The notes beneath the pieces were generated by a model. The model saw only the letters and a program-made list of their open reading frames with translations, was not told the DNA's origin and did no database searches. The translations under genes were made by a program, and so were the position numbers. Shown piece by piece: positions 14,157 through 60,736 of a stretch of DNA of 64,000 bases; within the stretch, counting starts at the first letter, position 1; every line of letters starts with the position of its first letter. This stretch comes from Botryllus schlosseri. Lineage: Eukaryota. Location: the NCBI GenBank assembly GCA_051294905.1, contig CM119373.1, positions 1,738,001-1,802,000 of the forward strand. The letters run 5' to 3'.

Positions 14157-14324
14157 TTGAAAGAGTTCGGTATCATCGACAATTCAATGAATGAAGATGG
14201 ATATGAGATACTCGTTGACATTCTGAAGCTGTCAGATTGCAAGGAATTGGCGCTCAAAAATTGTTGTCTCACCAAGACCAAGTTGCAAGGAGTATTGAAC
14301 GGATGTCGAAATCAAAATATCCAG
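14157..14324 (+). CDS. LRR exon copy 1 (two RI/NLR-type LRRs, 56 aa, phase 0-0) of a putative NLR-like gene
   Basis: tttcag|TTG...ATCCAG|gtgcgt; LKEFGIIDNSMNEDGYEILVDILKLSDCKELALKNCCLTKTKLQGVLNGCRNQNIQ has two LxxLxLxxN/C motifs about 28 aa apart; ctaat branch-like motif upstream. Confidence 0.8.
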
Positions 14325-16264
14325 GTGCGTCATCATGAACAATACGCAATATCCAAGAAGACATGTCCCCAACGATTCGGAATTTGTCGTCATCCTACTT
14401 CGAATCAAAAACGATGCAGCAGAAAATTGTTCACCATTTAATCTTTCGTTTACCAATACTCGTCGGAGGTAATTCGAATATTGCAGACGTTTAGTATTTT
14501 GCAACACAGACAACCTTGTATACTTCTGAAATGATTCACGACGCGACAACGTAGATATTATAAATATAGGAATATTCAGGACAGAAATCTAGCCGACGCG
14601 AATGTGAGAGTGAGAAAAATCGTTTTTCATGATGCGGTTCCATGCACCTGTTGTCATGGCTTGGAATGTGGGAATTCCAGAAACGTTTGGGCTGGTGAAA
14701 ATACTTTGCAGCTTTAGTATGGCGTCCTGATCTACTGCGACGTAATTGGCAGAAAAACGGCCAAGGTAAAATTTAGGATTTTGGGCCAAAAATTGCGCAC
14801 ATTTTCATACTTTTAGGTTGCTTATAAGCAGAGAGCTATGTCGATCAATGATTGTCTAATTGGGAGGTCAAGAAATAACAGCATGCACCATAGTGACTTA
14901 TATCAATTGGCCCATAGCATGATGTATCAATATGTATTACTTGCCCTCAGTTTTCGAACATACCCCTTGATCAACTCTGCCGGCGAATGCGATCACATGG
15001 GCTGAGAAAGGATTAATGTTTGATAGGAATACGTGAAATTATTAAGTTTAATTACGAAATTCATGAGTGAATCTGAAAGTTTCTCGCACTACGCGCGATC
15101 ATATAACCGTTCCCATAACATGACCACTCGCGATTTCGGTGCGTGTAGTAACCGGATATGAGTTAATAGATAAGGTTGGAGTTCACCGGAAATGGACATG
15201 GACACTTGGACAGCTTAAAATCGGTACTTGGCGTTAATCTAGTTCATCGCGACTATGCCATCCAATGTGGCCGCATGATTAATCGGAATGAGGCCGTGAA
15301 TAGCAAACAAGTTTGCCACTCCTGATTTACACCTTAGAAATGATTTCACACGTGCACTCACAATCAAAATCATTCAAAATTTTTCATCCCGTTTTAGAAG
15401 CATATACAATCTGCCAGCGACGTCAATACTAGTTGACAATATGTAACAGTATTTTAATATTCAGTAATATGTATTGTGCTGCATCCGGTATATATTGCGA
15501 TCGGTATCTTTCATTACGTGTAGCTATATCTCTAGTCGCAAAACCATGTATTCCATGGAGCCCATTGTAATATGCCATCATGTAGCAGAGTTTATGTATG
15601 CGCTGTTAACGAAACGACCGGCGGACGGTCCACCGATCAAGGATAATCCCAGAATTATCAAAAGAAAACTGAAATAACTCCACTTCTATGGTTTGGAATT
15701 GAGTCAAATTTGTTTTGCATCATTTTTGAAGACAGCGCAAAAATTTCATGGGGTTGGCAAAAAAATTTGAAAAAATATTTTTGTTGCATTTTTGGGCAAA
15801 TCCAAAATTTTCAAACTGTACGAAATCCGCGAATATTGGTTGGAATGAATTCAAATTTGGTGTGCGTCGTTTTTAAGGCAACCTAACGATTTAATCACGT
15901 AGCCAGCTAGATTCAGGAAAAAAGGTTCTTTTTGAACCGCGCTAATATACATCCATGGCACACGAAACCAGAACCCACCATAGACTTATATCGCGTTATA
16001 AATCGAGCACAAGATTTTTATCCAAATTTTGCATGCACGTAGGTGCGTAGGATTTATGACCGCTATATAATTCTGAGTTAGGTCCTGTTTTCGTCTACCA
16101 CCCTTTTCGCCCTATGGGTGTGAATACACACTGTTTTCGCTAAAAGTGCACTTGAATAAGACACACAGTTTACTCGCAAAACGCATAGTATATCATGCAT
16201 ATCAGAAGAAATTTTTATAGTCTACCTGCTGTAAAGCAAAATATACGAAAGAACAGTGCATTGA

Positions 16265-16705
16265 TTATTATTATTATTAATAATAATATACTTAAAAGCA
16301 GTTTTTGTGACGCATATTAGAAGAGACTCTTTGGGGTACAGAAATTTAATATACATTTTAATAATATATTCATTGTAAAATATATTAAAACCCGAACCTT
16401 TTCGAGTTGACACTCTTCAAGGACAATCGTCAGCAAATGGAGAATTTCAAAAACATGCATACAGCTGAATTGCATACAACCAATTATGACGTCATAGAAA
16501 AAAACAGCATGAAATACAAGCAAACCACGAGCGCAGCTAGTGGCCAATTTTTAGGTTGACTAAAAATTCCTTCTGCTGACACAAGCGGGGTCGGTGGATT
16601 TTAATATAAGTTGATTCCAGTGCAGACAGATGGAAATTAGTGCGTCCTCTACCTAATATAGAGAAACTTTCATCGCGATTGTTTTTAGCGCAAGTTGCAT
16701 TGCAA
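16265..16705 (-). mobile_element. Penelope-like element GIY-YIG C-terminus and 3' end
   Basis: FSILGRGRTNFHLSALESTYIKIHRPRLCQQKEF followed by non-coding sequence and an (ATT/AAT)n tail; separated from the RT fragment by a MITE remnant (~16706-17085). Confidence 0.7.
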
Positions 16706-17089
16706 ATTTGGTTCAATTCCAACCGGTGGAAGCGGAGTTATTGCCGCCGAAAAATTCGGATTTGAATAAAATAGTATTTACGGTGACCGATTCTTTGTTT
16801 GTGTTCGACGGCAATAACTCCGCTTCCACTGGTTGGAATGGAACCAAATTTGGTGAGCATCGTTTCTATAGACAGCCTAACACATTCATGGGGTGAACAG
16901 AAAATTTTCCAAATTTTTCAATATTTACTTTTATATAATTAATAGAAACTTTTTTTTACTGTAGCAAAGCGGTTACTGGCTGGAATTTGACCAAATTTTG
17001 TGTGTAGGCTAAAATTAGGTAACCTAACAATTTTATCAAGTAGCCAGTACGATTTGAGAAAAAAGTCATTTTTGAAGAGCCCTAATGTA

Positions 17090-17500: not shown

Positions 17501-17566
17501 GGTCATTTGCGTCACGACTTAACACTTGCCAATCGAATCGATATTTCGATAAGTAAATACAGTCAA

Positions 17567-20678: not shown

Positions 20679-23664
20679 GTGTAGACTGTAGAGTTTTTTT
20701 TAGCATTATGCCAAAATAATTTTCAAAATGTGTGCCGAAGTTTCATCTCCAGTATTTTTGAATGGGCAACACAACGTTTTCAGGAATCTCGACGAAACCA
20801 CAAAATCATTGTACTTGTACGTACATACATACATGGCTTACTTGCCGATGCATGCCTTATGCTCGCTACAGGCACACAAACGTTTAGAGCGGATCCTGAT
20901 ATAAATATGCAGCGGCATATAATTGAATACTTATCTATCGGAATTGTATACTATATTGTTCCACATAATTCCTTCGTCAATAATTCAACTGTATGAAGTC
21001 TATCCGCGAGCAGTATAACTAACCCTTCCCTTCATCAATAGCTTATCTTAAATTGATATTTGAGCAAACTTCAAGTCAAGAGTATGGATGTGCAAACCGG
21101 AATTTATTAGCTACGAAATTCTATATCCGAAAAGATATAAAGCAGATCGATATTGATCGAATGAACCCTAGCAATTTTGATCTGATGTCGGTTCATCGAA
21201 CCTGAACACTGATGAAAGTGCAATTCTTCAAAAAATATTACAAACCATAACGTATTCTTTATTGCAGTCTTAACATAGAGGTACCCTATATAAATAGGTT
21301 GATGTAGCAATTATACAAATCATTTACTATGTCAAAACAATAACACACGGTGTCGACCGATACTGATATCTTGATATCTAATATAATGAAAATCGATACC
21401 ACTACGAATAATATTAATAAAATTTCACCTCCTCCAGCTTCAGAAACTGCTCATCTTCGACAGTACAATACTCCCGGTGCCTATTATATGACGTGGCAGC
21501 TATTGCGAAATCCACTGCTACAACACCTATGGGTTGCTGGTTCTAGTCTGACCGATTTCTACTCTAGAATTCCTACCTAGATGTTTCAGGTTAATCTAGG
21601 CTCCTCCTCGCCATCTTATCCACATAACAGACTTGTAAAACTAGATAATTCTAGTTGTCTAATATCACTAAATTAGAGAGAAATGCCAGTAATCCAATTT
21701 GTAAATTATTCCTATGCTCTAATTTCAATTTTAATCTAATTTATTGTAGTCCTGAAAATGCCTTTTTGACCGCGGCGTGTTACACCGTGTCCCTCTTGCA
21801 CAGGGAAAACAGAGCCAAGCCGCTATCGCATTACTTACACCGTACAGAAATAGTAGTTATTGTGCGACGAATAATAGCCATACTGGCATAGCAGTTTGAT
21901 TGTTGGTTTTATTGAACAATTGTGACGCTTATCCCCTAATCAAGTTATTTGCGCCATGATAATGAATGTTGCAATGTTCATTGATCTTTGCCTTTGGAAA
22001 CTCTTTTCGGACTACTTCCAGTCACGCGTCCATTCATCATCGATATGTATCTCGTTTGTATCCGTCCTCGTCAGTGTCCTTTGTTGACGATTTTAGAAGC
22101 TCGACTTCAATTGATCAATTTGGGGTTTTCGTACGGTACTGCATACGCAGTGTGGTCAGCTACAAATGATTTGATATTGGGGCTAGACAGACATGTTGCT
22201 AGGTGAAAGACTATCTATCTCATCCTAAAGATTGATTGTGGGGACGCCCAGGGCCGTTTTCTAAGCGTCTCGGTTTTGGGCTTGGCGGTGTTGGGTCCAT
22301 TGTACGTCATGGCAATATGCCTATTCATATTCATATTAGCTGACTCTCCATCGATGCAATGCTGTTGCCATCGTTGAAGCCATTTCCGCTATAGCGAGGA
22401 ATAATAGTGTTGTCGCGCACAGACGAATAGGTTTATTTCAAACAGCAACAACAATAATTTGAAATTGAAATCAATTTTCGCATTTCAAAATACTTTATTC
22501 GCATTCTTTCAAATTCACAGATCAGATCGCCACCCTCAACATGCAGCCTCACGGGCCACGTGTTGATGACCCCTGGTATAGTGCAAAATGAGCAAAGCTT
22601 GATATACAGACGCTAACCAATCTCTTTGTTATGAGACTCCACTGTGATTGGATATGAACTGGACTTTTTTGCTGCATTTAACATTCAGAATTTCATTCAA
22701 TTTCAAAGTTTTTCCGAATTCAGTAGCCAAATTCTGATGCTAATTCTATTCTAATTTCGAAAAAAGCCGTATATAATTCGGAAAAGCTAAAAAATTCTTA
22801 GTTGTCCAAGTCTGCCGCGTAAATGGTGTCTCATAAAAGCATGAGTGGACCGTGCAGCAAGTCAGCAGCTATGGAATTTAAATGAAGCACATTGGCCTGG
22901 TGTAAATCACCATAGTATTTGACAAACCTTATGAATACCTCAAATCAAACAAAGAAACGACTAAAAAGGGAGCATAGAAATGCGTCAACTTATATCGTCG
23001 TTAGTGTCACTGATTTAGCGCTCCATAACTGTACTCAACAGGCAAATCATCGCATTTGGCCAATTCCATTGTTCGCGAATAAAGTCGTTGCTAGAATAAA
23101 AACACTATGATCCGTGATATGATTTAATGTACTATTATGTATATATGATTGATAATAAAGTATTCAAGTGAAAAGTAAGGACAGGTGGCAAAATTTTGAA
23201 CAGAGTTGACTGATAGTCCGGCCAGTGACAGATTTGAAGGTTTGAATCCGACCCGCGTCGCCATTTGAGTTTGAAAACCCTGCTCTAAGCTGAATCGCCA
23301 TGACCAGATAGCATACTTGTATGATCCACGGCTGCAACACCAATTGGTTGCGGGTTCGAGTCTGACCGAGGTCGACTCCAGAATTCCCAGCCAAGTTTTA
23401 GAGGTGCTGGGCTCCTATTCTTGCGGTTTCTTAAAAAAAGCCTAGAAGTGGACCGTGCTATGAGTGCTCTCAATATTGCAGGCCCCGAGTATTTTCTGCA
23501 CAACGATAAATGTATATTTTTAAAATTAAATGCCTAGTGGCTTTGCATTCAGGACAGTTAGTTTTACATCCAATCGAAATTCAAATCATTGGTAAAACAA
23601 AGTATATATTGCACGACATTAAAAGCTGGTGATTTTGTCTATTATAACATTTGAGATTCTATAT

Positions 23665-25430: not shown

Positions 25431-25598
25431 TTGCAAAAGCTCAATATCATCGACAGCTCAATGAATGAAGATGGATATGAAATACTCGTTCACATTATGA
25501 AGCTGTCAGATTGCAAGGAATTGGTGCTCCAAAATTGTTGTCTCACCAAGACTAAGTTGCAAGGAGTATTGAACGGATGTCGGGATCAAAATATACAG
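25431..25598 (+). CDS. LRR exon copy 2
   Basis: ttttag|...|gtgcgt, 168 bp, LQKLNIIDSSMNEDGYEILVHIMKLSDCKELVLQNCCLTKTKLQGVLNGCRDQNIQ. Confidence 0.8.
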
Positions 25599-37046: not shown

Positions 37047-38894
37047 TCATTCTGCGTTGCTTTTTTCTATTTCTGGTTGAAGACGATTGCAATCCTGTGT
37101 CGCTCCTGGGTATGAATTCTTCTTTGTCATGAATCTTGAACCACCGGCACGATCTCTTGAATTGGTGATCCACTTTCGCATGGCACGTTCAATATATTTT
37201 TCGGTGCAATCTTTTGTGTTGATGTTCATCTTGACTGCAGCTGTCGAAGGTAAATCAATTCATAACCGATTAAAAGACATAAAAATTACTCGGGTATTAC
37301 CAAAAACCCCTTTAAAAATGATTGTGTTCTTCAGCTTAAATTTATCATTTCGTCCGAAAACGCTGCAGCGATTTGCGAATTCGTTCTGCAATAATCTCGG
37401 CATTACCCGTCTCATGAAGTCATCGGAAGTATCGCCACCAATATTAGCCAGAGTCTTCACCTGTACGAACGTACGAGTTAGTACAGATCTTTGTTTGCAA
37501 AAGCAAAAGTTTACCATCCGTTCGAAAACTCCCGGCTCCCTTGCAAAAAGCTGATCCAAATTCTGTAGTTTTTCACCGTCTTGTATTGGAAACACTGAAG
37601 GTAGTTCTGATGTCATAGACGCGTTGAAGTATGGCAGAATCAGCTCCATGAAATGTTCTATTCTCTGGATGCTACGCGACATTCGATTGACGTCCGATTG
37701 AAGATTCACCAATCTGCGACCCATGGTTTTCGATTCAGCCGATATAACTGTAGCATAAAATAATATTTTTTAATATTATGCATCTGCTGAATATCAATAC
37801 AATACACACCAGGATTGTATTGATTTGTTGAGGATATAACTGAGGAGGGCACTTCTTCACCACTATCAATATCAGTGTTGTCGAGAAACCGATCAGGTTC
37901 ATTGTATTGCCTGTCCGAACAGCGAGACTTGGTGAATGATGCGGGTACTTCCTCACTAGGATCATCTTCCCTGTCACCGAGGGACTGACTATGTTGCCCC
38001 TCCAAGTAGCAATACTTTTTTGCTGAAAAATGATAAAGCATTGTGCTAGCCATCAAGTTACAGAATCAGAAATTGGATAATTGATTTGATCTGTACCTGA
38101 CTTCTTAGAATTATTTGGCCGCCACACAGGTGGTGGACATATGATCGGGCTATCATCATCATCGGTGTCACTGCTTGTCTCTTCTATCAATCTTCTCTTC
38201 CGAGAAGGGATCACTCTGAAACAAAAATGGGATATTGACCGACTAAGTATGCAGGGCAGACATTCCATGATAACGGTAGGAAATAACTGAAGTATGGAGT
38301 TATTAGACACAATTTTTTGACCATTAATGATGTATAAAGATGAAAACTGCCACCATCTGAAAACGCTGTGTCGATATATATTTTCAAAAGTCGAAAAAAG
38401 GAGAAAGACTTATCACCACCATTTTTTTGTTTGTTTGAAATTTGTAGACCTGTGTTATCATTAGTCATATTTTGAAGTTCCATTCCATAGAGAAGACTTT
38501 TAAGAGTATTTTGCTTTACTTCCGTTTAGCTGGAAGTGCTCCAGCAGATTCCGAAAGCTCGCAATCCGTCTGCCTCAGAGATCTTTGCAATTTCTTGTTT
38601 GCCTCTGCATAGTCATCTAGGAAATAATAAGTAATACAGTAATACGCAAGGATAGGTCTATCCAATACGCGTACGAAACATACTAGTTTCGGCCAAAATT
38701 TTAACGGCATGCAATGCCCAGGTTTTTTCAGGATCTCTGAACTTTTTCAGCAACTTGTCAATTTTGTTAGATGACATTTTCGAGGGCCAGGAGCATCGGC
38801 CATTTTTTCCAAGCCATGTCTTTGGCACGACAGCTGCCGACACCTTGTCCTTGCTGTCTAGGAATTCAACCACACAATATACTTTCTTCGACAT
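37047..38894 (-). CDS. Spliced EnSpm accessory gene, DUF4806-type (YCVVEF..VVPKTWL..W-P N-terminus; LANIGG...RKWITNSRDR C-terminus)
   Basis: Exon 1 38894-38684 (MSKKVYCVVEFLD...), GT-AG intron, exon 2 from 38616 (NDYAEANKKL...), further short exons to the stop at 37047; internal exon boundaries only partly resolved. Confidence 0.75.
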
Positions 38895-39059
38895 TACGAT
38901 TATGGATCTGTCAAAAACAACAAGATGCATGTTGTCAATACTGTCACAGGGAAAACCTATATATGAGGTGGGTACGACACTACCGCGTGGCAAGAAATGA
39001 TTAGGTGTTGGGCCTATAATTGAAGATCAGATTTTTTAAATACTTTTAGCGCACACATA

Positions 39060-41186
39060 TCATATGGATTGATGAATCAAAGGGAAAACCACGTACGCAT
39101 CATTGACATCATTTGCATCAGGCAAGACTACCAGCTTGTGACTGATATCTGTTATACTCGCGGTATGCAGATTTGATGATAAACGGTTTACCCGTTTAAT
39201 CCCAATCAAGGTCGAATCAAACGGACGGTCGAAGAATTTCTCAGAATGTCGAAATATTTGATATACTACTGAACCACTGGAGCCTCCGGAGGAATTTTGC
39301 AAAATATTCTGAATCATACATATTTTGTTATGAATATTCACACAATTGTCCCCTTCATTCAAGGAAAAGGACAGAGCATCAGATCGAAACCGACGGAATT
39401 GTCTCTGGCCCTCAGATTTGGGTCCAGAATAGTACTCTTGACAAAACTGAGGAGTCAATGCTTCATCATGCCCAGGCTCACATTCCCTCTCAGAGTTTTC
39501 TTTCTCATTAATCCTACGAAGAATTTGGGCAATTGGATTGCGCGAGCTCCGAACCAAGCCCTTCAACTTTCCAAGCATGGATTCAAAAGGAAAGCAGGAT
39601 ACGTTTTGTAATGACCCATAGCGCTTCGCATCAGCAACAAGATGGATTACGCTGTGAACGTTATAAACCAATGACTCCTTTCCATATATGCAGGAAAATT
39701 CTTGAACAAAAATCTTTAGAAGGCACTCGATGTAGTCATAGTCCAAACCATACGCGTTGTCATGTAGTAAGCACCGAATGCAAACCGACAAAAGCAGGAA
39801 ATTTCTATATACTTTCTTTTTCAAAATTCCCTTGAGACATACTGGACCAGTATATAGGAGGAATTGGCGAAATTCCGTTGCTTTCCACAACTTTGATTCA
39901 AGGAGCGATCTTGGCTTCCGAGAAAATTCCTGTGATAAATGTGGCCTTAAACTCAACAGCGTATCGGAAATCTTCCTGATATCCCTGGCATGCAGTCTGA
40001 CTGTCAACGGGCCGGGTGGAAATACCCAATAATACAGTATTTTCCGTACAACGCCCAAGCATATCAAATGCTGATAGTCCAAAACAACCTGCGACACCAT
40101 GCCGATACCGAGTTCCACCAAAGGCGATTGGTGCAGATGGTGGTTTTCATCTTCCATCGTGCAGAAGGATTCGTCAGTGCGGAGTGTTGCATGAAGTTCT
40201 GGAAAGATCATTCTACCTTCAAATTCGCCTTCTTGTATGCAACGCTCACATGAGCTGTACCCACTATGCCCCTTTATTCCTTTGATAAAACTTCGTGCTT
40301 GTGAGTCACATATAACAGCATTGATTGCCACCTGATATGTCTTTTCCTGAATCGTCATTCCATTAACCATAAGATCTTGCATTTCTTCGACAAAGTCTTT
40401 TAAATATTCTGCTACTGATGATGGCTTTCCGGGTCCATAAAATATGGCCACGACAAATGGATCGAATCCTTTCAACTCTTTCACTTGAGCAAGAATGGGC
40501 CAAAGGGATGATCTTGCACTTTTGAAAAGAGGTATTCCATCCACGTTAACATCAATGGTGATTTGCTGTATGCTCCTCCTCAGTACTGCTCCTTCAATAG
40601 CCTTTTGCAGGCCTATGTAATCATATAAACCTCCTGACACATTTTTAATTTCATAGTCGTCCGTTCTCATTGTTTTCAGCAACGTTCGGGGATCCTTTGG
40701 CAAATCTGATTGAGTGTGAATGCGGAGTATCATCAGCAATTCACGAAATGCACAATGAGTTATATTATGCTTACATGCCCAGTCCCGAAGTAGTGCGGAT
40801 AAATTACCAACTTTTCGACCATCAGGTGACTCCTCTTCTGAACTAGACCAGTCTGCAACATCATCCATTTGAGTAAACGTATTGGCATCAATATGTGAAG
40901 TACTGGTAACTTGAAAGACACCATCATTGGAATGATCATGACGAGTAGTGGGGTTCCATTGTGTATCATATTCATCAGGGTAACCACATCGAACTGAGCT
41001 ATCACGATGCCTCTCAGCCTGTTCCAAGCTATTAGAGGGTCCTCTTGCGATCTCAGCTTGAATTTGCCCCTCAGCCTGTTCCAAGCTATCAGAGGGTCCT
41101 CTTGCCACCTCAGCTTGAATTTCACCAAGGTAAATTTCATAAGCCTGTTTTCTTCTCCGACTCCGCGTTCTTTTAGGTATATCCAT
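39060..41186 (-). CDS. EnSpm/CACTA-type transposase, 708 aa, intact single ORF
   Basis: Motifs VNVDGIPLFKS..LWPIL, ICDSQARSFIKGIKGHSGYSSCERC, LDYQHLICLGV, FSRKPRSL..WKATEFRQFLLYTGP, YNVHSVIHL and SCFPFES are typical of animal EnSpm transposases. Confidence 0.92.
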   Translation of the reverse strand: MDIPKRTRSRRRKQAYEIYLGEIQAEVARGPSDSLEQAEGQIQAEIARGPSNSLEQAERHRDSSVRCGYPDEYDTQWNPTTRHDHSNDGVFQVTSTSHIDANTFTQMDDVADWSSSEEESPDGRKVGNLSALLRDWACKHNITHCAFRELLMILRIHTQSDLPKDPRTLLKTMRTDDYEIKNVSGGLYDYIGLQKAIEGAVLRRSIQQITIDVNVDGIPLFKSARSSLWPILAQVKELKGFDPFVVAIFYGPGKPSSVAEYLKDFVEEMQDLMVNGMTIQEKTYQVAINAVICDSQARSFIKGIKGHSGYSSCERCIQEGEFEGRMIFPELHATLRTDESFCTMEDENHHLHQSPLVELGIGMVSQVVLDYQHLICLGVVRKILYYWVFPPGPLTVRLHARDIRKISDTLLSLRPHLSQEFSRKPRSLLESKLWKATEFRQFLLYTGPVCLKGILKKKVYRNFLLLSVCIRCLLHDNAYGLDYDYIECLLKIFVQEFSCIYGKESLVYNVHSVIHLVADAKRYGSLQNVSCFPFESMLGKLKGLVRSSRNPIAQILRRINEKENSERECEPGHDEALTPQFCQEYYSGPKSEGQRQFRRFRSDALSFSLNEGDNCVNIHNKICMIQNILQNSSGGSSGSVVYQIFRHSEKFFDRPFDSTLIGIKRVNRLSSNLHTASITDISHKLVVLPDANDVNDAYVVFPLIHQSI

Positions 41187-44100
41187 TACTGATCAATCAA
41201 ATATTCACGAACTATACTGTAAACAACTGTTGCAGTGAGGTTTTTGTGGCTGATCTTTCAGTTAGCAAAAAATGCAGTGAAAACATTGACACATGTTTGG
41301 TAATTCAACTCGACTTCCAAAAAGTGAAATCACTTTTTTCCAAAAGGTTAAACAAATTGAGCATCAGGTCAACACAGTGGTGTAGCCTATTCAGTCGATA
41401 TTATAGGGTCATCTCAATCAATCAACCATTATCGCTAAGCTAACGATTATAGAAGCGTACACGAACATATGATTTTCAGCATCTTTCCGAACCGTGTGAC
41501 TGACCCTACAGCACGCGCGATGATAACTACACCTCGATCGAAGCAGGGGCGTTCGGTCAGCTATATACCAGGTTATAAACTGGGAAGATAATAACTTCAG
41601 CGTCAGAAAACTGAGGCACTTCATCGATGGTAGGAAGACATCGCAAAGTGAATACCATAATCACCACCAATACATGTTCTCCATGAGGGGTTCTAGTTCA
41701 TTACATGACTGCCCCAATTTTAATCGAGCGATTAAAATGAGGTCTATTGAATCAATAGGTCAAGTCAACTCATGCAAAATCATCATCACAAACGATGGAA
41801 AACATAAGCGGGTGGAATCAAGGCTGTAGGCTCGTGTCGCTAGGACATGCTTGGCAATATGTGATGCAGGAGCGAACTGATGATAATCAGATGTTGGTAT
41901 TTCAGCATTTTGAAAACACGAATAGATTGCGATTTAATGAAAAAATAGAAAGGTACTGAAACGATATGAAGCAGTTATTAAAGCTGGACAGTCACCAATA
42001 GCTACCAATAGCCACAAGACGGTGTAAAGAAGCACCAACGTCATAATATGGCGCATTGCAATATGTACATTGTACGATAGACACTGAATATAAAGAAACA
42101 GAAGAGAAGGGAAGATAGCCTAATGAAGTGGCATGTTTCGGAATGATAGCTCAATATAACAAATTGAGACTTGAATGAGACTTGATGTCAGATTGCTCTC
42201 GAGGCTTTTAGCGAAGTCTTTCACAAACTCATCTCCACGGCGTATTTCATTATCGAATTATCGAATCAAGAGGCGAAGTCAATACTTGCATCTGTGGAAA
42301 AACACGAGTATATGAAATCAAAATAGGCTTGCGTCAGTAGGATGGAGATTGACGATATCAATGTGATCTTGAAAGGAACTTTCAGATATCACGTAAAACT
42401 ACGCCAAACTGAGAAAAGGCGATATACCCTTTGAGGAAGAAGATTTTTAACAGAATCCACAGAGAACAGATTACATCAGAAAATTTGGAGGCCCAGCCTT
42501 GGTCTCGCATTCGCCATCCCAATAATATATATTGATATAATCGAATATATCCATAGTATATGTCCATGCTGGAGAAGTCTTGTAATGAACTAGAATCCCT
42601 CATACCTCACTCGCAAACGAAATATCCGACACTTTTTGTCTTGGCAATTGGAAATGATGCATGCTTTATAGATAGGTGCTAAAGCGTACTGAATGTAATG
42701 AATGAATGAATGTTCACAACCCCACGTGTAAGGTACAATCAGCAAGATATGCGCCAGAGATTAACGTATCAGTTGTGCGATATATCTGGGTGAGGAGAAA
42801 AAAGCATAAAATGGGAGCACAGCTGATTTCCACGTGAAACATCATCAATTCTGACATGTTCACGGAGAACATGTATAGGCGGTGATCGTGGTGAACACTT
42901 TTTGATGCCTTCGTAGTATTGAAAAAGTGCTAGCTAATATCGTTAGGCTAACTTTACTCTACTAGGCCTAGTCAATTATCTAATTAAGGAACAATGTAAC
43001 GTTCCACAACAAGCCTGTATTCTCGTAGCAAGACAATGCAGATAAGAGAATAGAATTGTCATACAGGCGTCGCCATTTCTGCTTCTCTTTCATCAATCAA
43101 AACACCGTACAATCCTCAAGATTCCAAGGCGAGCAATAGGTCAGGTAGAGCAAAAATTACGGGTGATAATATAGGGGTAAGCCAATACATTTGAGAACTT
43201 TGATTCTCTTATGTACAAGGCAGCTTATAACAACTGACCTGCAGCTAAATAATCAGATACCATATTTTTCAAGAGAAAGAACTATTATATTGAACCGAGA
43301 AATTAGCAAATAATTGAGGCTATAATGCATATAGCTTTGGGATTACTGCTATAAAGGTATGATACGAACCATGAACCTGTTTTACGACGCACAGACTATC
43401 TTTCAGGCTTCACTACATTTCAATCAGTATCTCTCAGTTAAACTAGATCACTATCAACCTAACTGACAATTCAGTCACCTAAAAATACTGTCTGTACTTT
43501 TCTACCTGCACTGAAAGGGACTTCTTCCACGTCCCAGTGCAAAAGAGCCACGGTAGCGAGCGAGAGCGACTTGAGCTTCGAAAGACGGAAGTTCAAAGAA
43601 ATTGGCGGGCTTGATTGACTATAACTTTTCATGGCTGACTGAACTCGAAAAAATAAAATTCTAGAGGATCCGGACAGTTGGTTCTATCGTTATTCTACCG
43701 ATCGACGCTATAAAATTATATCACACACTCTGAGGAGTTGAGTACTCTAGCAAAGGAAATGTCAGTTCATTTCAGTGTGATAAACGGACAATTTTAAACA
43801 GTTCAAATCACATGGACAAAGTAAAGCTTGGTAGGAGTTTTAAAGTTCGATGTTAGAGCGACCAACAGGGATCGCATAATAGCTAGAAAACTTTACTACA
43901 TATGGCAACACCTTCTTATTCGATTAAATAAACCAAATAACATTGATGGAAAATAAGGTTGGTTCCTGTGTGGGTAATGTATAGGAAATCTGAGCTTCTC
44001 TATAGGTGGATTTCTCATGTTTCAAGATGATTTGATTACAAAAACTCAACAGGTAAAACTCTCCCGAGTTCAAATAGATATGTGCAATTAACATTAACGA

Positions 44101-44795: not shown

Positions 44796-44957
44796 TTGCA
44801 AAGGCTCATTATCATCGACAATTCAATGAATGAAGATGGATATGAAATACTCGTTCACATTCTGAAGCGGTCAGATTGCAAGAAATTGGTGCTCCAAGAT
44901 TGTTGTCTCACCAAGTTGCAAGGAGTATTGATCGGATGTCGGGATCAAAATATCCAG
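44796..44957 (+). CDS. LRR exon copy 3 (6-bp in-frame deletion)
   Basis: ttttag|...|gtgcgt, 162 bp, LQRLIIIDNSMNEDGYEILVHILKRSDCKKLVLQDCCLTK--LQGVLIGCRDQNIQ. Confidence 0.75.
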
Positions 44958-48285: not shown

Positions 48286-48299
48286 TCGTAGGCGATCCA

Positions 48300-51499: not shown

Positions 51500-52720
51500 A
51501 CCAGAGAACCCGTCCCTTGGGGAACCCGTCCCTACCAACTCGGCCCTCGGAGAACCCGGCCCTTGGAGAACCCGGCCCTCGGGAAATTTTGCATATCAAG
51601 CACGCGTGGTCTACTTGTTGTCGTATTTACGGTGTTTTTCGACTACTCTGGACCTCGGAGAATGCGGCCCGCGAATAATTTTGTATCAAAAATGCATTAA
51701 ATGTGAAGCCGGCCCTCGGGAAATATTGTATTCACCGGCAACCCTAATATCCCACCTCCACCAACCCTAATATCCCACCCCCGGCAACCCTAATATCCCA
51801 CCCCCGGCAACCCTAATATCCTAACCCTAACCCTAATATCCTCCCCCAACCCAAATATCCCCCTCCCCCAACCCTAATATCCCCCTACCCCAACCCTAAT
51901 ATCCCACCTCCGGCAACCCTAATATCCCACCTCCACCAACCCTAATATTCCACCCCCGGCAACCCTAATATCCTAACCCTAACCCTAATATCCTCCCCCT
52001 ACCCTAATATCCCCCTCCCCCAACCCTAATATCCCACCTCCGGCAACCCTAATATCCCACCCCCGGCAACCCTAATATCCCCCTCCCCCAACCCTAATAT
52101 CCCACCTCCGGCAACCCTAATATCCCACCCCCGGCAACCCTAATATCCCACCCCCGGCAACCCTAATATCCTCCCCCTACCCTAATATCCCCCTCCCCCA
52201 ACCCTAATATCCCACCTCCGGCAACCCTAATATCCCACCCCCACCAACCCTAATATCCCACCCCCGGCAACCCTAATATCCCACCCCCGGCAACCCTAAT
52301 ATCCCACCCCGGCAACCCTAATATCCCATCCCCGGCAACCCTAATATCCCACCCCCGGCAACCCTAATATCCCACGCATGCCCTGACCTCCTTACAAGAC
52401 CGACAAATCAGTTGATAATAACATTATTACTTTATTAATTCATATTAATACTTGTGAATACACTTAATTTCTAAATTTCCCGAGGAATATTACTTTTCAT
52501 TCAGTGTGCATGCCTCTTATTTACTTCGCCTACGCTAAGGTGGGTGTCTGATCTTAATGGCTACTCCAAGTTTTTTCGACACCCTCCTATCTTTTCATTG
52601 TATCGCAGTCTTGTGATGTTTTGAAACGATGAAAATATTATTAAACCTGACTGACTGACTTCACCGAGGGCCGGGTTCTCCAAGGGCCGGGTTCTCCAAG
52701 GGACGGGTTCTCCGTAAATA
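51500..52720. mobile_element. Foldback-like element with tandem ~16-bp subterminal inverted repeats and an internal telomere-like minisatellite
   Basis: Left (ggagaacccg(t/g)ccct)x4, right (agggccgggttctcc)x3; inserted in a MITE whose empty version is at ~16770. Confidence 0.75.
51737..52375 (+). repeat. Minisatellite, ~21-bp unit GGCAACCCTAATATCCCACCCCC (about 30 copies)
   Basis: Directly visible; contains a CCCTAA telomere-like core. Confidence 0.95.
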
Positions 52721-54645
52721 CGGTTGCCGATTCTTTAATCATTTATTACAATTGTGCCCACCGTAAATACTATTTTATGCAAATCCAAATTTGTCGACAT
52801 CAATCACTACGCTACGGCTGGTTTGAATGGAGCCAAATTTGGTGGACATCGTTTCTATCGACAACCTTACAATTTCATGGGTGAACAGAAAATTTTGAAT
52901 TTTTTTTTATTAATTCTTATATAATAAATAAAAAAACTTTCTTCTCCTGTAGCAATGCGGCCACTGGTTGGAATTGAACCAAATTTGGTGTGTAGGCTTC
53001 AATTCGGTAATCTAACAATTTTATCAAGTAGCCAGTAGAATTTGAAAGAAAAAGTCATTTTTGAACACCCCTACTGTACAGTGTACAGACATTTGCTATT
53101 CCCATGCGCATAAGATGAACTATGATTTGATATTAACGGGTGTGAGTATACACCATGGCACAAGAGACCTGAACGTACCTCATACTTATACCGCGGTATA
53201 AATCGAGTGCAATATTTTAATCCAAATTTTGCATGCACGTAGGATATATGACCTCGATCTCATTATGACTCAGGTTTTGTTTTCATGTACCACCCTTTTC
53301 GGCCCCTTAGGTGCAAATACACACTATTTTCGCTAAAAGTGCACTCGAATAAAATATGCATGTTACGCATAAAACGCGTAGTATATTATGCCCATTAGAA
53401 ATCGGTGTCTACTCTACAAGTTGTAAACCCAAATGTACGAACGGGCAGTGCATTCATCGATTCGATATCTCTAAAATTCCATTGTGAGTCAACAAACCTG
53501 ACTAAAATACGAGGTCACTGCAAATTGGTCGATTGTCGCTTCATTGCGAAACATTCATTATTTTCAATGAAACATTCTTTCTTTGACGATATAATCAGTG
53601 TTTTTCCAAATCGTAACGACCGTAAAAGCATTTCAGCACTATTACACGCAGCATTTTTCATTTCATCGCCGATATCCACTAATTGCATATTAATATGAAA
53701 TTCGCTAAAATATTCATTTATGCGAATGAGACTCTAGAGTTAGTGATCATTATGCAAAGGTGAATTGCAGAATATGGTCGGAAGTTTCATCGCCCTTATT
53801 CTTGAATAGGCAACACAACTGTGAGAAGTCCATCCGTCTGAAGTATAATTATGCGGTCGTTTTCACAATAAAATATTTTAAATTGATAATAATACAAACA
53901 TCAAGTCAAGTGTTTAGATGTGCAAATCTGAATTTATTAGCTATGAAAATTCTGTAACCGAAAATATATAAAAAGGAACGATATTTATCATGTTCCCAGC
54001 TATATTCGGATGAACTCTCGCAACTTTCGTATCTGATATCTTAAATTGGCTCATTAAACAAACGCTCTGTACGAATTCACATTCATATGACGATAATCAA
54101 CATATGCGACTCGTAGCTTACATTGTCGTAAACTTGCTTACCTCAACCTTACCTCTTGTATATAATTTAAATCAAACGAATATCGTTCATACGTTTATAA
54201 TTGTATATCGTTGATAAGTAGGTGGGTAGGGTATTGAACTATATCAATTTTAAACATTCTGAGGTTTCGTATGTTGTCCTCTATTTGGCTGATATTTAAA
54301 GACTGGCTACATCGCCATACTTGCGTAGTTGAGCAGTTCTGCGTATGCGTGAGCGATACAGCGCCTCTTCATTCCATTACTCCTCGCCACTTAATCCGCG
54401 TAAGCCGTGACTTGCGCAAAGTCTAGAAGTGGGCCGTGCTATAAGTCGGCAGTTGACGAATAAATATGAAGAATATTGGCCTGGTGTGAATGGCCGTAGT
54501 AGTTGACAAACACCATGAATATCTCAAAACAAACAAACAAACTATTTATTCGTTCGTCGATTCCGAATAAATGGGTACTTCATCTGTATTTAAAACAGTT
54601 AGCAAAATGTAATGACTTTGAATCATGTCCAGTACGTTGAAATTT

Positions 54646-55190
54646 CAACTTGACTTGACTAGTGACTTGACTAGTGACTTGACTCGTGACTTGACTTGAC
54701 TTGACTTGACTTGACTTGACTTGACTTGACTTGACTTGACTTGACTTGACTTGACTTGACTTGACTTGACTTGACTTGACTTGACTTGACTTGACTTGAC
54801 TTGACTTGACTTGACTTGACTTGACTTGACTTGACTTGACTTGACTTGACTTGACTTGACTTGACTTGACTTGACTTGACTTGACTTGACTTGACTTGAC
54901 TTGACTTGACTTGACTTGACTTGACTTGACTTGACTTGACTTGACTTGACTTGACTTGACTTGACTTGACTTGACTTGACTTGACTTGACTTGACTTGAC
55001 TTGACTTGACTTGACTTGACTTGACTTGACTTGACTTGACTTGACTTGACTTGACTTGACTTGACTTGACTTGACTTGACTTGACTTGACTTGACTTGAC
55101 TTGACTTGACTTGACTTGACTTGACTTGACTTGACTTGACTTGACTTGACTTGACTTGACTTGACTTGACTTGACTTGACTTGACTTGAC
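54646..55190 (+). repeat. (TTGAC)n pentanucleotide microsatellite, ~100 units
   Basis: Directly visible; adjoins a GACTCGAGTC-MITE remnant. Confidence 0.98.
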
Positions 55191-57399
55191 CCGAGTCACC
55201 TTTGAAAATCAAGTGACTTGACTTGACTCGAGTCAAAATGAATTGGCAACAAAACGTTTCCATGAATCTCGACGAAGTCACAAAATCAATGTAAATACAG
55301 GCCAATGGCACACAAAGGCAGACAAACGTTTACAGGGGATCCAAATATAAATAAGCAGTGGGACAGTATTGAATGCTTACACATCGGAATTGTATACTAT
55401 ATTGTTCCACATAATTCCATCGTTAATAATTCAACGGTATGAAGTGTATGCTCCAGCAGTATAGCTAACCCGTCGCTTCCACAATTGCATGTCTTAAATT
55501 GATATTTATCCAAACTTCAAGTCAAAAATATGGATGTGCGAACCTGAATCTAGTAGCTATGAAATTCTAAATCCGATATTGATCGAATGAACCCTGCAAG
55601 ATTGATATCTGAAATCGGTTCATCAAACAAACGGTATGTGCGAATTCACAATCGTAATATCGAGAATCAACATCTGTGACTTTTCAGTGTCTTCTGATGG
55701 GAGTGCAATTCTTCAAAAAATATCACAAACCATAACGTATTCTTTATTGCAGTCTTACCATAGCGGTACCCTATATAAAAAGATTGATGTGGCAATTATA
55801 CAATTCATTTTTTATGTCGAAACAATAATACACCGTGTCGACCGGCACTGATATCTTAATGTCTAATATAATGAAAATCGAAACCACTAAGAATAATATT
55901 GTTAAAATTTCGTCTCCACCAGCTTCAGAAACTGCCCATCTTCGACAGTACACTACTCCCGGGTTCTTATTATGACGTGGCGGAAATTGCAAAAGCCACC
56001 AAATGCGCCGAAGTGTGTGTACCGAACCCAATTCCAACGTCCACGTTTACGGTTTAATCTCTTGTATTCTTACCAACGCACACTCGGGGTCAACATCCAG
56101 TTACGACTAAAAAGAGTGGTGGGATAGCGTAGTGGTGTAATCCACTGCTGCAACACCTATGGGTTACTGGTGCGAGTGCGACCAATTTCGACTCTAGAAT
56201 TCCTAATTAAGAGTTGGAGGTTTAGCTAGGCTCCTCCTCGCCATCTCATACGCGTAACAGACTTGGACAACTAGATAATTCTAGTTGTCTAATTTCACTA
56301 AATTAGAGCGAAATAGCAGTAATCGAATTCTAATCTAATTTATAAAATTTTCTATGCTCCAATTCTAATTCTAATTCTGATTCTAATCTAAATTGAGAAA
56401 CGTTCTTATACTCTAATTTTAATTCTAATCTAATTCATTGTTTTCCTGAAAATGCCTATTTGACTGCGGCATGTTGCCGCGAGTCCCTCTCGTACAGGGA
56501 AGTCCAGAGCCAAGACGCCATCGCATTACTTGCACCGTACAGAAATAGTAGTTATTGTGCGACGAATAAGAGCCATACTGGCATAGTAGCTTGTTTGTTG
56601 GTTTTCTTGAACAATTGCGAGGCTTATTGAATAAGCATGTTATATGCGCCATGATAAGAAATGTTGCAATGTTCATTGATCTTTGCCTTATGAACTCTTT
56701 TCGGACTACTTCCAGTCACACACCCATTCATCATTGATATCCATCTCGTTTGCATACGACCTCGTCAGTGTCTTTTACCGACGATTTTCGAAACTCGACT
56801 TTAATTGATCAATCTGGGCTTTTCTTACGGCACTGCATACGCAGTGACGTCAGCTACTAACGATTCGATATTCGGGCAAGCCAGACATGTTGCTAGATGA
56901 AAGACTATCTCATCCTAAAGATTGGCTTTGGGGACGCCCTATAGCCCTAGTTTTCCAAGCGCCTCGGTGTCGAGTGCACTGTACGTCATGGCAATATCCC
57001 TATTCATGCCAGCTGACTCTCCATCGATGGAATGCTGTTGCCTTCGTTGAAGCTATTTCCGCTATAGCGAGGAATAGTGTTGTTTGGCACAGACGAATAG
57101 GTTCATTCAAAACTACAACAATAATAATTTGAAACTGAAATCATTTTCGCATTTCAAAATGCTTTATTCGCGTTCTTCCAAATTCACAGATCAGATCGCC
57201 GGCCGCAAAATACAACCTCGCGGGCCGCCTGTTGATGACCCCTGGTATTGTGCAAAACGAGCAAAGCTTAATATACGGACGTTAACCAATCTCTTTGTTA
57301 TGAGACTCCATTGTGATTTGATATGAACTGAACTTTTTGCTGCATTTATTTCTCATTCAAATTTTCATTCGATTTCCAAGTTTTTCCGAATTCAAATTC

Positions 57400-58195
57400 T
57401 GATGCTAATTATAATCTAATTTGGAAAAAAGCTGTGTAGCTTTAATTCTAATTCTAATCTAATTTGGAAAAATTGTATAGCTCTAATTCTAATTCTAATC
57501 TAATTTGGAAAAAGCTGTGTAGATGTAATTCTAATTCTATTATAATCTGGAAAAAAAGCTGTGTAGATTTAATTCTAATTTTAATTTAATTTGGAAAATA
57601 TGCATAGCTCTAATTATAATTCTAATATAATTTGGAAAAAGCTGTGTAGATCTAATTCTAATTCTAATCTAATTTGGAAAAAGCTGTGTAGATTTAATTC
57701 TAATTTCAATCTAATTTGGAAAAATTGTATAGCTCTAATTATAATTATAATCTAATTTGGAAAAAGCTGTGTAGATCTAATTCTAATTCTAATCTAATTT
57801 GGAAATAACTGTGTTGATCTAATTCTAATTCTATTCTAATCTGAAAAAAAGCTGTGTAGCTTTATTTCTAATTTGAATCTAATTTGGAAAAATTGTATAG
57901 CTCTAATTATAATTATAATCTAATTTGGAAAAAGCTGTGTGGATCTAATTCTAATTCTAATCTAATTTGGAAATAACTGTGTTGATCTAATTCTAATTCT
58001 ATTCTAATCTGAAAAAAAGCTGTGTAGCTTTATTTCTAATTTGAATCTAATTTGGAAAAATTGTATAGCTCTAATTATAATTCTAATCTAATTTGGAAAA
58101 AGCTGTGTAGATCTAATTCTAATTCTAATCTAATTTGGAAATAACTGTATAGCTCTAATTCTAATTCTAATATAATTTGTAAAAGCTTAAAAATT
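57400..58195 (+). repeat. ~41-bp satellite (AATTCTAATTCTAATCTAATTTGGAAAAAGCTGTGTAGATCT), about 19 copies
   Basis: Directly visible; only 1-4 units at paralogous sites (~1140, ~12470, ~22740, ~34600). Confidence 0.95.
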
Positions 58196-59674
58196 CTTAG
58201 TTGTCCAAGTAAGCGGTGTCATATAAAAGCATGAGTGGGCCTTGCAGCAAGTCAGCAGCTACGGATTTTAAATGAAGCACATTGTCCCGGTGTAAATGAC
58301 CATAGTATTCGACAAATCCCAAGATTACCTCAAAACAAACAAACAAGCGACTAAAAAGGGAGCATAAAAATACGCCAACTTCTATCGTCGTTACTGCCAC
58401 TGATTTAGCGCTCCATAACTGTACTCAACAGGCAAATCATCGCATTTTTGCCAATTTCATTGTTCGCGAATAAAGTCGTTGCTAGAATATAAACCCTATG
58501 ATCCGTGATATGTTCTAATGTACTAATATGTATGTATATAATGATAGATAATAAAGTATTCAAGTGAAAATAGGGACATGTGACAAAATCTTGAAATGAG
58601 TTGACTGATGGTCCGGCCTGTGAGAGATTTGAAGGTTTGCATCCGACCCGCGTCGCCTTTTCAGATTCACAATCCTGCTCTAAGCTGAATCGCCATGACG
58701 AGATAGCATAATGGTATGATCCACGGCTGTAACACCAATTGGTTGCGGGTTCGATGCTGACCGAGGTCCACTCCAGAATTCCCAGCCAAGTGTTACAGAT
58801 TTATCTAGGGCTATGCTACTCTTTATTCACCAGATCAGCGGTAGTGGTTTCTTAAAAAAGCCTAGAAGTGGATCGTGCTATGAGTGCTCTCAATATTGCA
58901 GGCCCTGAGTATCTTCTGCACAGCGATCAATGTATATTTTTATAATTGAATGCTTCTTGGCTTTGCATTCAGGACAGTTTGTTTTACATGCAATCGAAAT
59001 TTAAATCATTGGTAAAACAGAGTATATATTGCACGACATTAATATTGCGCACATTGTCTATTATAATATTTGAGATTCTATATAGTTGCTGAGTGACGTA
59101 AAGACCGAGTGAGTGTCTCACTTCGATTTCCCAAAAGTGTTTATGAATACTGGCTGAGTGCCGCAGAAACCCTATAGTACTGTCATTATTGAGTGATCAT
59201 TAGTAAATTAGTAATCATAAAAACTGCATAACGGTATGCTTTAAAGTTGCCAAACACAGTAGACCTGCCGTCTCCGTGGATTCAATCGGACAGATTTACT
59301 TGCCGACATCCTGATGGCGACCACTTTTTGAAGGAGGAATAGATTGCTATTATTCCAGTTAACAGAATTCAACGTCGAAATCAGCCAACACATATTTTAC
59401 TCAGAGGACCGAGTTTCCAAATAATGTCAGCCAAATAGCTCATAGGTAATTTTACAAATTTCTGTTGTGTTTGAGTGTATTCGATCAAATGAAATCTAGA
59501 ACATTCTACTCGACTCGAAGATCAATTCTCGTTTCGAAATCGTATCTTCCGAGCCGTCGATTTCGCCCAGTCACAGTTGCAAGATTATGGTATTTTGAAG
59601 TCTACTGACAGTAATTTCGATTTCATTTTCGAAGCATAATAAAAGTCATTTTATCCGATATTTTATCATTTTAG

Positions 59675-59842
59675 TTGCAACAGCTCGGAATCGTCGACAA
59701 CTCAATGAAAGAAGATGGATATGAAATACTCGTTCACATTCTGAAGCTGTCAGATTGCAAGAAATTGGTGCTCCAAGATTGTTGTCTCACCAACACCAAG
59801 TTGCAAGGAGTATTGAACGGAAGTCGGGATCAAAATATCCAG
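59675..59842 (+). CDS. LRR exon copy 4
   Basis: ttttag|...|gtgcgt, 168 bp, LQQLGIVDNSMKEDGYEILVHILKLSDCKKLVLQDCCLTNTKLQGVLNGSRDQNIQ. Confidence 0.72.
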
Positions 59843-60568
59843 GTGCGTCATCATGAACAATACGTAATATCCAAGAAGACATGACACATATTGCACACAT
59901 TGTCTATTATAATATTTGGGATTCTATATAGTTGCTGAGTGACGTAAAGACCGAGTGAGTGTCTCACTTCGATTTCCCAAAAGTGTTTATGAATACTGGC
60001 TGAGTGCCGTAGAAACCCTATAGTACTGTCTTTATTGAGTGATCATTAGTAAATTAGTAGTCATAAAAACTGCATAACGGTATGCTTTAAAGCTGCCAAA
60101 AACTGTAGACCCGTCTCCGTGGATTCACTCGGACAGATTTACATGCCGATATCCTAATGGCGACAACATTTTGAAAGAGGCAGAGATTGCTATCATTCCA
60201 GTCATCAGAATTCTACGTCGAAATCGGCCCCACATATTTGTTCCTCAGAAGGCCGAGTTTCAAATATTGCCAGGGAACTAGCTCGTAGGTAATTTTACAA
60301 ATCAATATTGTGTTTGATTGTACTCGATCAAATGAAATCTAAAACATTCTATTCGACTCGAGGATCAATTCTCGATTCGGAATCGTATCTTCCTAGCCCT
60401 GGATGTCGCCCGGCCACGATTGCAATATTATTTTACTTGAAATGATGGCGAAGCAATCGTAGCAGAGTAATGTGATACTAATAGTATTTTACAGTTTATT
60501 GACAGGAATTTCAATTTCATTTTCGAAGGCTAATGAAAGTAATGTTATACGATATTTTATCATTTTAG

Positions 60569-60736
60569 TTGCAAAGGCTCCTTATCATCGACAATTCAAT
60601 GACTGAAGATGGATATGAAATACTCGTTCACATTCTGAAACTGTCAGATTGCAAGGAATTGGCGCTCGCAAATTGTTGTCTCACCAAGACTAAGTTGCAA
60701 GGAGTGTTGAACGGATGTCGGGATCAAAATATCCAG
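60569..60736 (+). CDS. LRR exon copy 5
   Basis: ttttag|...|gtgcgt, 168 bp, LQRLLIIDNSMTEDGYEILVHILKLSDCKELALANCCLTKTKLQGVLNGCRDQNIQ. Confidence 0.8.

Follow-up and report, generated by a model that had tools for sequence, protein, structure and literature searches.

A stretch of 64,000 nucleotides (nt) of the Botryllus schlosseri genome, here called the window (C3:1738001-1802000, where C3 is contig CM119373.1 of a 495.5-Mb assembly; guanine-plus-cytosine fraction 0.36-0.44), carries five copies of one short exon that encodes leucine-rich repeats (LRRs). An earlier note on this DNA, made from its letters, had pointed to hypervariability at the exposed beta-strand positions of these repeats and had proposed positive selection for different binding surfaces. 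What kind of gene do the exons belong to, and has selection driven their surfaces apart? We consider it highly probable that the five blocks are consecutive, tandemly duplicated LRR exons forming the 3' sensor part of a very large NACHT-LRR gene of the nucleotide-binding LRR receptor (NLR) type, and that the faces they encode are under diversifying selection.

A repeated exon encoding two leucine-rich repeats

The block is 168 nt long and occurs five times in the window, always on the forward strand and with a single open frame across it (Table 1). In the window, ...ttttag or ...tttcag stands before each copy and gtgcgt after it. The exon peptide consists of two 28-residue repeats with the framework L1..L4.I6..N9.M11...G15 and C28..L31.L33..C36.L38, in which codon 1, TTG, is read as Leu (a leading M in the peptide alignment is an artefact of table-11 start translation). 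Set against the motif LxxLxLxx(N/C)xL, the peptide reads L1-x-x-L4-x-I6-x-x-N9-x-M11 and C28-x-x-L31-x-L33-x-x-C36-x-L38 with a period of 28, and these framework positions are invariant or nearly so in 27 genomic copies. The residues given in the earlier note agree exactly with the extracted copies, both at positions 2, 3 and 5 of repeat 1 (KE.G, QK.N, QR.I, QQ.G and QR.L, with GGT, AAT, ATT, GGA and CTT at codon 5) and at positions 30, 32, 34 and 35 of repeat 2 (E.A.KN, E.V.QN, K.V.QD, K.V.QD and E.A.AN). The helical segments that it described as invariant or almost invariant, EDGYEILV, KLQGVL and QNIQ, are identical across the five window copies.

The family extends well beyond the window. 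A DNA search of the genome gave 40 matches, 27 of them within C3:1.487-2.152 Mb and all on the forward strand; the parts of this locus at 1.61-1.738 and 1.802-2.25 Mb were covered through search tables and 3.2-kb loci. A conserved 24-nt motif, allowing at most two mismatches, is found at 26 places in the C3 locus and nowhere else (a control pattern gave one match), and the 27th copy, outside this motif set, is a diverged first copy at C3:1487534. The peptides of the 27 copies have a mean column identity of 89%. Within the window, searches with the 27-copy profile and with Styela proteins as queries recovered, as LRR exons, only the five copies and relics of a second kind of LRR exon, type A.

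Evidence for diversifying selection at seven codons

Ten of the 56 codons (2, 3, 5, 7, 8, 29, 30, 32, 34 and 35) were designated as x positions a priori from the LRR consensus, and all 27 genomic copies were analyzed because the five window copies are too few for the test. Codons 3, 5, 7, 30, 32, 34 and 35 each carry six or seven different residues, compared with one to four at every other codon; three x positions, 2 (Q), 8 (D) and 29 (K), are conserved. Taken together, the seven variable residues form 24 different signatures among the 27 copies.

Site models were fitted with a purpose-written codon-likelihood program, which reproduced the M0 log-likelihood (lnL) of -1050.78 given by iqtree. 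Models without positive selection reached lnL -1027.90 (M1a), -1028.79 (M7) and -1027.32 (M8a), and the models that allow it reached -1005.65 (M2a, with omega2, the ratio of nonsynonymous to synonymous rates in the selected class, at 5.83 in a proportion of 0.139 of sites) and -1005.58 (M8, with omega 5.41 in a proportion of 0.140). Twice the log-likelihood difference (2dlnL) is thus 44.5 for M1a against M2a (P = 2e-10), 46.4 for M7 against M8 (P = 8e-11) and 43.5 for M8a against M8, with P ranging from 2e-10 to 2e-11. Seven codons have a posterior above 0.95 under both M2a and M8, and they are the seven variable ones, corresponding to x3, x5 and x7 of the first repeat and x3, x5, x7 and x8 of the second; all seven fall among the ten a-priori x positions (hypergeometric P = 5e-7). 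The earlier proposal of positive selection is therefore supported over the 27-copy alignment, with omega at 5.4-5.8 in about 14% of sites, as is the placing of the hypervariability at exposed beta-strand positions.

Simpler measures agree. In the 25 close copies, pooled Nei-Gojobori estimates at the x codons give a nonsynonymous distance (dN) of 0.313 and a synonymous distance (dS) of 0.179, against 0.029 and 0.093 at the other 46 codons; dS over the whole exon is 0.105. A tree-free count of minimum steps in the same 25 copies finds 36 nonsynonymous steps per 25.1 sites at the x codons (1.44 per site), compared with 16 synonymous steps per 34.2 sites (0.47 per site, P = 8e-5) and 398 steps per 545 intron columns (0.73, P = 2.5e-4); nonsynonymous steps at the other codons amount to 0.23 per site. 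Over all 27 copies, the excess at x codons over synonymous change holds (P = 0.0014). By these statistics, the seven codons have outpaced synonymous sites, and in the 25 close copies they have outpaced intronic sites as well.

The result holds under other choices of tree and sample. A tree derived from the flanks gave a 2dlnL of 85.0 and picked the same seven sites, and the 25-copy subset gave 43.9, with codons 3, 5, 30, 32 and 34 at posteriors above 0.9. The flanking introns were also considered as the genealogy and set aside, as the flank tree gives a much poorer fit to the exon (lnL -1312 vs -1051) and the downstream flank aligns poorly.

Position of the selected residues on the predicted fold

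Searched against the PDB, the 27-copy profile matches a designed LRR protein like ribonuclease inhibitor (RI; 4r5d, E 7e-4) and mouse RI (3tsr_E, E 5e-3), both with the LxxLxLxxN strands aligned in register; weaker matches to other RIs (E 0.01-0.6) and to NLRP14 (E 0.4) are consistent and in the same register. Pfam LRR families gave no match to single exons at E <= 0.001 and none at 0.01 among the window's scanned open reading frames (ORFs). AlphaFold, run on the 27-copy alignment, predicts strands at residues 3-6 and 30-33 and helices at 13-25 and 40-51, each repeat being modeled as a strand, a loop and a helix.

A longer relative comes from the tunicate Styela. The LRR-only protein P0006 is modeled with a mean predicted local distance difference test score (pLDDT) of 91 as 16 strand-helix units, and this model matches NLRP2, RI, NLRP3, NLRP9 and NLRP14 at E values of 3e-10 to 3e-7, with NLRP2 and RI at 3e-10 to 3e-9. 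Exon residues 3-51 align to P0006 384-432 without a gap, and the P0006 strands at 384-388 and 411-414 correspond to exon residues 3-7 and 30-33. The codons picked by the site models fall in the two predicted beta strands or directly behind them, alternating with the conserved hydrophobic residues 4, 6, 31 and 33 (L4, I6, L31 and L33). In standard LRR geometry, residues that alternate with the buried strand positions face the concave surface. The predicted strands, read with this geometry, place the variable sites on one face, and we infer that the selected residues sit on the concave, putative ligand-binding side.

Gene context and relatives

NACHT exons are abundant in the genome (94 scored of 224 candidates). 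A 404-residue ORF at C3:1422156-1423367 matches Pfam NACHT at E 1e-14, and its closest paralogues, likewise intact, lie within the array at 1696722-1697873 (77% identity) and 1929385-1930530 (85%); all three are on the forward strand. Downstream of each NACHT exon comes a distinct LRR exon, type C (at 1471370, 1733289 and 1938024 in turn), and then an array of the repeated exon. This threefold series points to three tandem NLR paralogues with 5, 7 and 15 exon copies. The window lies within the second of these predicted genes, beginning 4.6 kb past its type C exon and 40 kb past its NACHT exon, and contains five of the seven copies there. Within a gene, copies are separated by 0.9-43 kb of transposon-rich intron, which stretches the LRR regions to about 70-210 kb; spacing of units over the whole array runs from 0.9 to 167 kb. 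The search tables also show related LRR exons in regular arrays elsewhere, at C1:24431735-24460378 (period about 5.65 kb) and C7:28566265-28598230 (about 6.3-6.6 kb), and this putative architecture of NLR LRR-exon arrays is common in the genome.

Searching 1.84 billion representative proteins with the 27-copy profile gave 44 matches, the best three being RefSeq proteins of Styela clava. One of these relatives, P0001, has 2508 residues; it carries NACHT and NOD2_WH domains, and 20 stretches in series match the repeat. Identity between the exons and the Styela proteins is about 30-36%, and a word-index protein search with a single exon returned eight candidates, none significant.

The copies arose with their surroundings. 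Judged from self-alignment of the window, core blocks 74-97% identical recur at offsets of 10-46 kb, broken up by insertions; besides the core around exon copy 1, they lie at about 21920-28422, 33807-35689 (truncated and exonless), 44275-46712, 56615-59886 and 59888-62701. Copies 4 and 5 arise within a local 846-nt tandem duplication (59042-59886 and 59888-60780). Segmental or tandem duplication has multiplied a unit about 4 kb long, giving 27 copies over the three neighboring putative NLR paralogues.

Two exon triplets are laid out in nearly the same way: C3:1798569-1812552-1820251 in the second gene, with spacings of 13983 and 7699 nt, and 2042801-2056786-2064297 in the third, with spacings of 13985 and 7511 nt. 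The middle exons of the two triplets are near-identical (signature MVMEQQY) and the outer exons clearly different. On these positions and signatures, the arrangement looks like a higher-order duplication in which neighboring exons were replaced later.

Points against the reading and alternative explanations

Several observations weigh against diversifying selection on the exons of an expressed NLR gene. Codons 7 and 35 drop below a posterior of 0.9 in the 25-copy subset. Exon and flank genealogies conflict strongly, by the likelihoods given above, and in six copies the 600-nt upstream flanks are at most 1.5% apart while the exons are 2-10% apart, synonymous sites included; this conflict and mismatch indicate that recombination or gene conversion is at work. 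Recombination also inflates the null statistic, as 4 of the 10 replicates in one batch exceeded 5.99. Pairwise dN/dS at the x codons over all 27 copies is just 1.11 (dN 0.330, dS 0.299; intron 0.204), and the tree-free excess over intron is then not significant (P = 0.058). The x-codon dS (0.179-0.299, from about five synonymous sites) lies above dS elsewhere (0.093-0.121), and several differences involve the whole codon, such as GTG vs CAA at codon 32. Whole-codon replacements inflate omega, and imported or multi-nucleotide changes may make up part of the excess. Branch lengths were rescaled under the site models, without re-optimization, and some of the near-identical copies may be alleles or duplicates made in assembly. 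The exon model has a modest pLDDT of 64, and Foldseek returned nothing for it at E <= 0.001 (NLRP1, NLRP14 and RI stand in non-significant rows). Lastly, four RNA runs whose source organism and tissue were not established gave, on window positions 58400-62400, no exon read at 95% likeness or more and no splice joints; we infer the link from NACHT exon to array, and splicing in series, from the genomic DNA.

At 90% likeness, the same runs gave 0 (X4), 39 (X9), 14 (X11) and 45 (X13) reads on that interval, with partial overlaps that are mostly 90-95% alike; four X13 reads at 59711-59760 derive from a paralogue. Reads pile up only at 61296-61350 and 61454-61508 (depth up to about 5-8, in X9 and X13), all of them partial, 90-95% alike and loose at both ends, the pattern that a dispersed repeat transcribed at other places would give.

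The six flank-alike copies lie at C3 1797645, 1980764, 2103006, 2064267, 2126062 and 2042771 (loci L012, L014, L019, L020, L021 and L025). From the contrast between flank and exon distances, either their introns appear to have been homogenized or their exons exchanged, through gene conversion or recombination.

It is conceivable, at rather long odds, that there has been no positive selection at all: the x positions would be merely unconstrained, and conversion, recombination and import from distant paralogous LRR exons would push omega above 1. The conflicting trees, the six flank-alike copies, a synonymous distance at x codons about twice that elsewhere and the weak 27-copy figures are all in keeping with this, and recombination alone raised the likelihood-ratio statistic to as much as 17.2. 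That value comes from null simulations under the fitted M1a, with independent genealogies for four or two exon blocks and the same FastTree pipeline that was applied to the real data, in which 15 four-block replicates gave 0-17.2 and five two-block replicates 0-1.2. The real data scored 53.0 in this pipeline, a value that none of the 20 replicates reached, and the observed range of 44-53 lies far above all of them. Moreover, unconstrained sites cannot outpace the neutral rate, yet in the 25 close copies x-codon change exceeds both synonymous and intronic change in counts that need no tree and are conservative with respect to saturation. The selected sites are, in addition, exactly the structural x positions.

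Alternatively, the array might serve alternative splicing, with cells including different subsets or single exons, in the manner of Dscam or of exon skipping in NLRP3, so that each gene yields many isoforms. The copies would suit such a system: all are 168 nt (one is 162 nt), both ends are in phase 0, the splice signals are identical and there are 24 different signatures on the predicted binding face. The sections of Hoss et al. 2019 (PMC6642158) on NLR LRR exons treat modularity as a precondition for alternative splicing and report that NLRP3 exon 5 is skipped in human cells. Set against this are the Styela relatives, annotated with up to 20 serial repeat stretches in one protein, which make serial inclusion the simpler account; we regard a splicing array as a minority possibility.

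The copies might also be dead pseudo-exons, carried by segmental duplication in introns or intergenic DNA, with a pattern that records constraint from before the duplication. The RNA runs yielded neither support for expression or splicing nor a verdict on them; the units are embedded in transposon-rich DNA at widely varying spacing, and intronic, non-coding LRR exons are described for Ectocarpus ROCO genes in the relevant part of Zambounis et al. 2012 (PMC3341825). The condition of the copies themselves speaks against it. The frame is open, and the AG acceptor and GTGCGTCA donor are intact, in 27 of 27 copies. Exon length is 168 nt in 26 copies and 162 nt in one, each exon starting at the first L codon after AG and ending before GT, so that both borders are in phase 0. 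In the upstream flank there are 32 distinct gap intervals per 600 nt, and 26 of these shift the frame; the exon has one, in frame, where about 7.3 frameshifts would be expected (P = 7e-4). In the 25 close copies, dN at non-x codons is 0.029, against a dS of 0.093 there and an upstream-intron distance of 0.133, and the differences counted here arose after duplication. Low framework dN, the absence of exon frameshifts and the decay of all four type A relics in the window together indicate that purifying selection has acted on every copy, as it has on the framework codons, and we hold dead copies to be improbable.

Least probable are germline donor cassettes of the variable lymphocyte receptor (VLR) kind, copied somatically into an incomplete receptor gene: the likeness is superficial (many similar LRR modules at one locus, varying on the concave face), and every copy has canonical AG and GT borders, the repeats are of the 28-residue RI/NLRP type behind NACHT exons, orientation is uniform and in register with an ordinary NLR gene structure, and the window ORFs showed no LRRNT or LRRCT caps. 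The donor cassettes of the lamprey system lack splice signals and flank an incomplete germline gene, with LRRNT/LRRCT caps and 24-residue LRRV modules; as a model for the locus it fails on splice signals, repeat type and caps. The earlier note had called the blocks cassettes; as their AG/GT borders indicate, they are ordinary spliceable NLR exons and not donor cassettes of the VLR type.

We therefore return to a tandem array of exons in a NACHT-LRR gene. In such a gene the exons would be spliced in series, and each protein would form a horseshoe whose concave face is a mosaic of variable residues. Diversifying selection would act on ligand recognition, and unequal crossing-over and gene conversion between near-identical units would keep reshuffling exons relative to introns.

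Comparison with known receptor systems

In both plant NLRs and lamprey VLRs, the x positions of LxxLxLxx on the concave sheet are hypervariable and under diversifying selection, and the exons described here share this variability at x positions. Plant NLRs combine an NB-ARC domain with 24-residue LRRs, usually without one exon per repeat, and lamprey VLRs are assembled somatically from cassettes that have no splice signals. Neither NB-ARC with 24-residue repeats nor cassettes lacking splice signals are seen at this locus.

The two-LRR exons of vertebrate NLRP genes, brown-alga LRR exons and fungal NLR repeats are the nearest precedents. As set out in the part of Hoss et al. 2019 (PMC6642158) that deals with them, NLRP LRR exons are exactly 171 bp long, encode two alternating repeats of 28 and 29 residues, preserve the frame strictly and were modeled on RI. 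Similar to these, the Botryllus exons are short, frame-preserving, RI-type two-LRR exons with a constant border position, downstream of a NACHT exon. In contrast to what is described there (PMC6642158), they are 168 nt long (28+28 rather than 28+29 residues), share about 89% protein identity, number 5, 7 and 15 copies per gene and are known from DNA alone.

Ectocarpus ROCO genes have one LRR per 72-nt exon, with exon shuffling and intronic relic exons, in the account of Zambounis et al. 2012 (PMC3341825) that concerns us here; models M2, M3 and M8 support positive selection at solvent-exposed sites, with a mean omega of 5.9. Both systems thus have small module exons that were duplicated and shuffled in and among clustered paralogues, along with relic exons and comparable omega values, 5.9 there and 5.4-5.8 here (PMC3341825). 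They differ in that, as far as that account goes, the brown alga has 24-residue plant-type LRRs, a ROC-COR GTPase and relics on both strands, and the tunicate has two RI-type LRRs per exon, a NACHT domain and exons on one strand.

The C-terminal repeats of fungal NLRs, in the passages of Dyrka et al. 2014 (PMC4986451) devoted to them, are more than 85% identical internally, with positively selected sites on the concave binding face. NACHT/STAND architecture, a few hypervariable selected positions and signs of concerted evolution and reshuffling are common to these repeats (PMC4986451; Paoletti et al. 2007, PMC1805685) and to the present exons. The fungal repeats in those passages are WD, ANK or TPR repeats within single exons, and no LRRs were found in fungal NLRs, unlike the LRRs found here, which occupy one exon each between long introns. 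By the fungal measure of more than 85% identity over at least 100 residues, the 27 exon peptides stand at a mean column identity of 89% and the window's gene holds seven exons, or 392 residues, figures that count only if the exons are spliced in series.

Other features of the window

In addition to the intact exons, the window holds four type A relics (Table 1), and all four lose similarity at the same point, about 80 nt into the exon, without a donor site. Intact type A exons lie elsewhere, at C3 1485415, 1593279, 2017926, 2118079 and 2162876. As type A is present in the window only as relics beside the intact exon, the amplified unit consists of a type A relic plus an intact 168-nt exon, and the common break suggests, from the alignments, that truncation came before amplification of the unit.

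Table 1. Features of the window, in window coordinates, with the strand where assigned and the supporting observations.
Feature	Position	Strand	Observations
LRR exon copy 1	14157..14324 (= C3:1752157-1752324)	+	56 codons, two 28-residue RI-type LRRs; AG before, GTGCGT after; profile E 7e-37
LRR exon copy 2	25431..25598	+	AG/GT kept; profile E 3e-38
LRR exon copy 3	44796..44957	+	162 nt; in-frame 6-nt deletion takes out two codons (TK) in the second repeat; profile E 7e-34
LRR exon copy 4	59675..59842	+	Block extraction, splice borders, 27-copy profile match
LRR exon copy 5	60569..60736	+	Starts 894 nt after the start of copy 4; block extraction, splice borders, profile match
Core of duplicated unit around exon copy 1	11665..15630 (about 4 kb)	+	Window self-BLASTN, repeat families
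Type A LRR exon relic	55864..56005	+	Upstream intron and about 80 nt of exon kept; tblastn/blastn with intact type A exons C3:1485415 and 1593279
Type A LRR exon relic	21379-21515		Same tblastn/blastn search
Type A LRR exon relic	33084-33203		1-nt deletion, 6-nt insertion, TAA stop; same search
Type A LRR exon relic	2050-2121		Same tblastn/blastn search
Transposon-derived ORFs between units, outside the receptor	37263..41192	-	Pfam DUF4806 at 37263-37769 (169-residue ORF), 27.3 bits over cut-off

The transposon-derived insertion comes after the exonless truncated unit, and its 710-residue ORF (39063-41192, reverse strand) has a weak DUF4218 match below cut-off. The window has 135 ORFs of 75 residues or more, and Pfam searches with the longest 100 yielded only transposon fragments and tandem-repeat artefacts. 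Tandem-repeat tracts occupy 54567-55330, 51661-52437 and 57384-58237, with units of 10, about 23 and 42 nt, and sub-threshold pentapeptide and decapeptide Pfam matches in ORFs over the 10-nt tract are repeat artefacts.

Significance

The locus joins a known class, since diversifying selection on the binding face is already known in other immune receptors; what is notable is the clean contrast between scaffold and face and the size of the genes. We found no description of tunicate NLR LRR-exon arrays of this kind in the full-text literature, a search with most subscription journals outside its scope and thus weak evidence that they are unpublished. Where PMC8662601 touches on tunicate receptors, its passages deal with TLRs and RLRs only.

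There is an outside chance that the frame-neutral arrays of 5, 7 and 15 exons are a substrate for stochastic or regulated exon choice, and not just a long constitutive LRR domain. If so, single cells or individuals of an invertebrate chordate would express different NLR surfaces from one gene without DNA rearrangement, and near-identical introns would promote continual exon reshuffling. Such a system would parallel VLR assembly by means of splicing and would be the LRR equivalent of fungal allorecognition NLRs, whose repeats are highly conserved.

On the more probable reading, of exons spliced in series in a NACHT-LRR gene, a non-vertebrate chordate would be diversifying an intracellular NLR sensor by keeping scaffold and splice signals near-constant over 27 copies while seven putative contact positions turn over. 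The same strategy in brown-alga LRR exons and fungal NLR repeats suggests convergence on a constant scaffold, a variable face and recombination-prone repeats wherever NLR-like receptors must track variable ligands.

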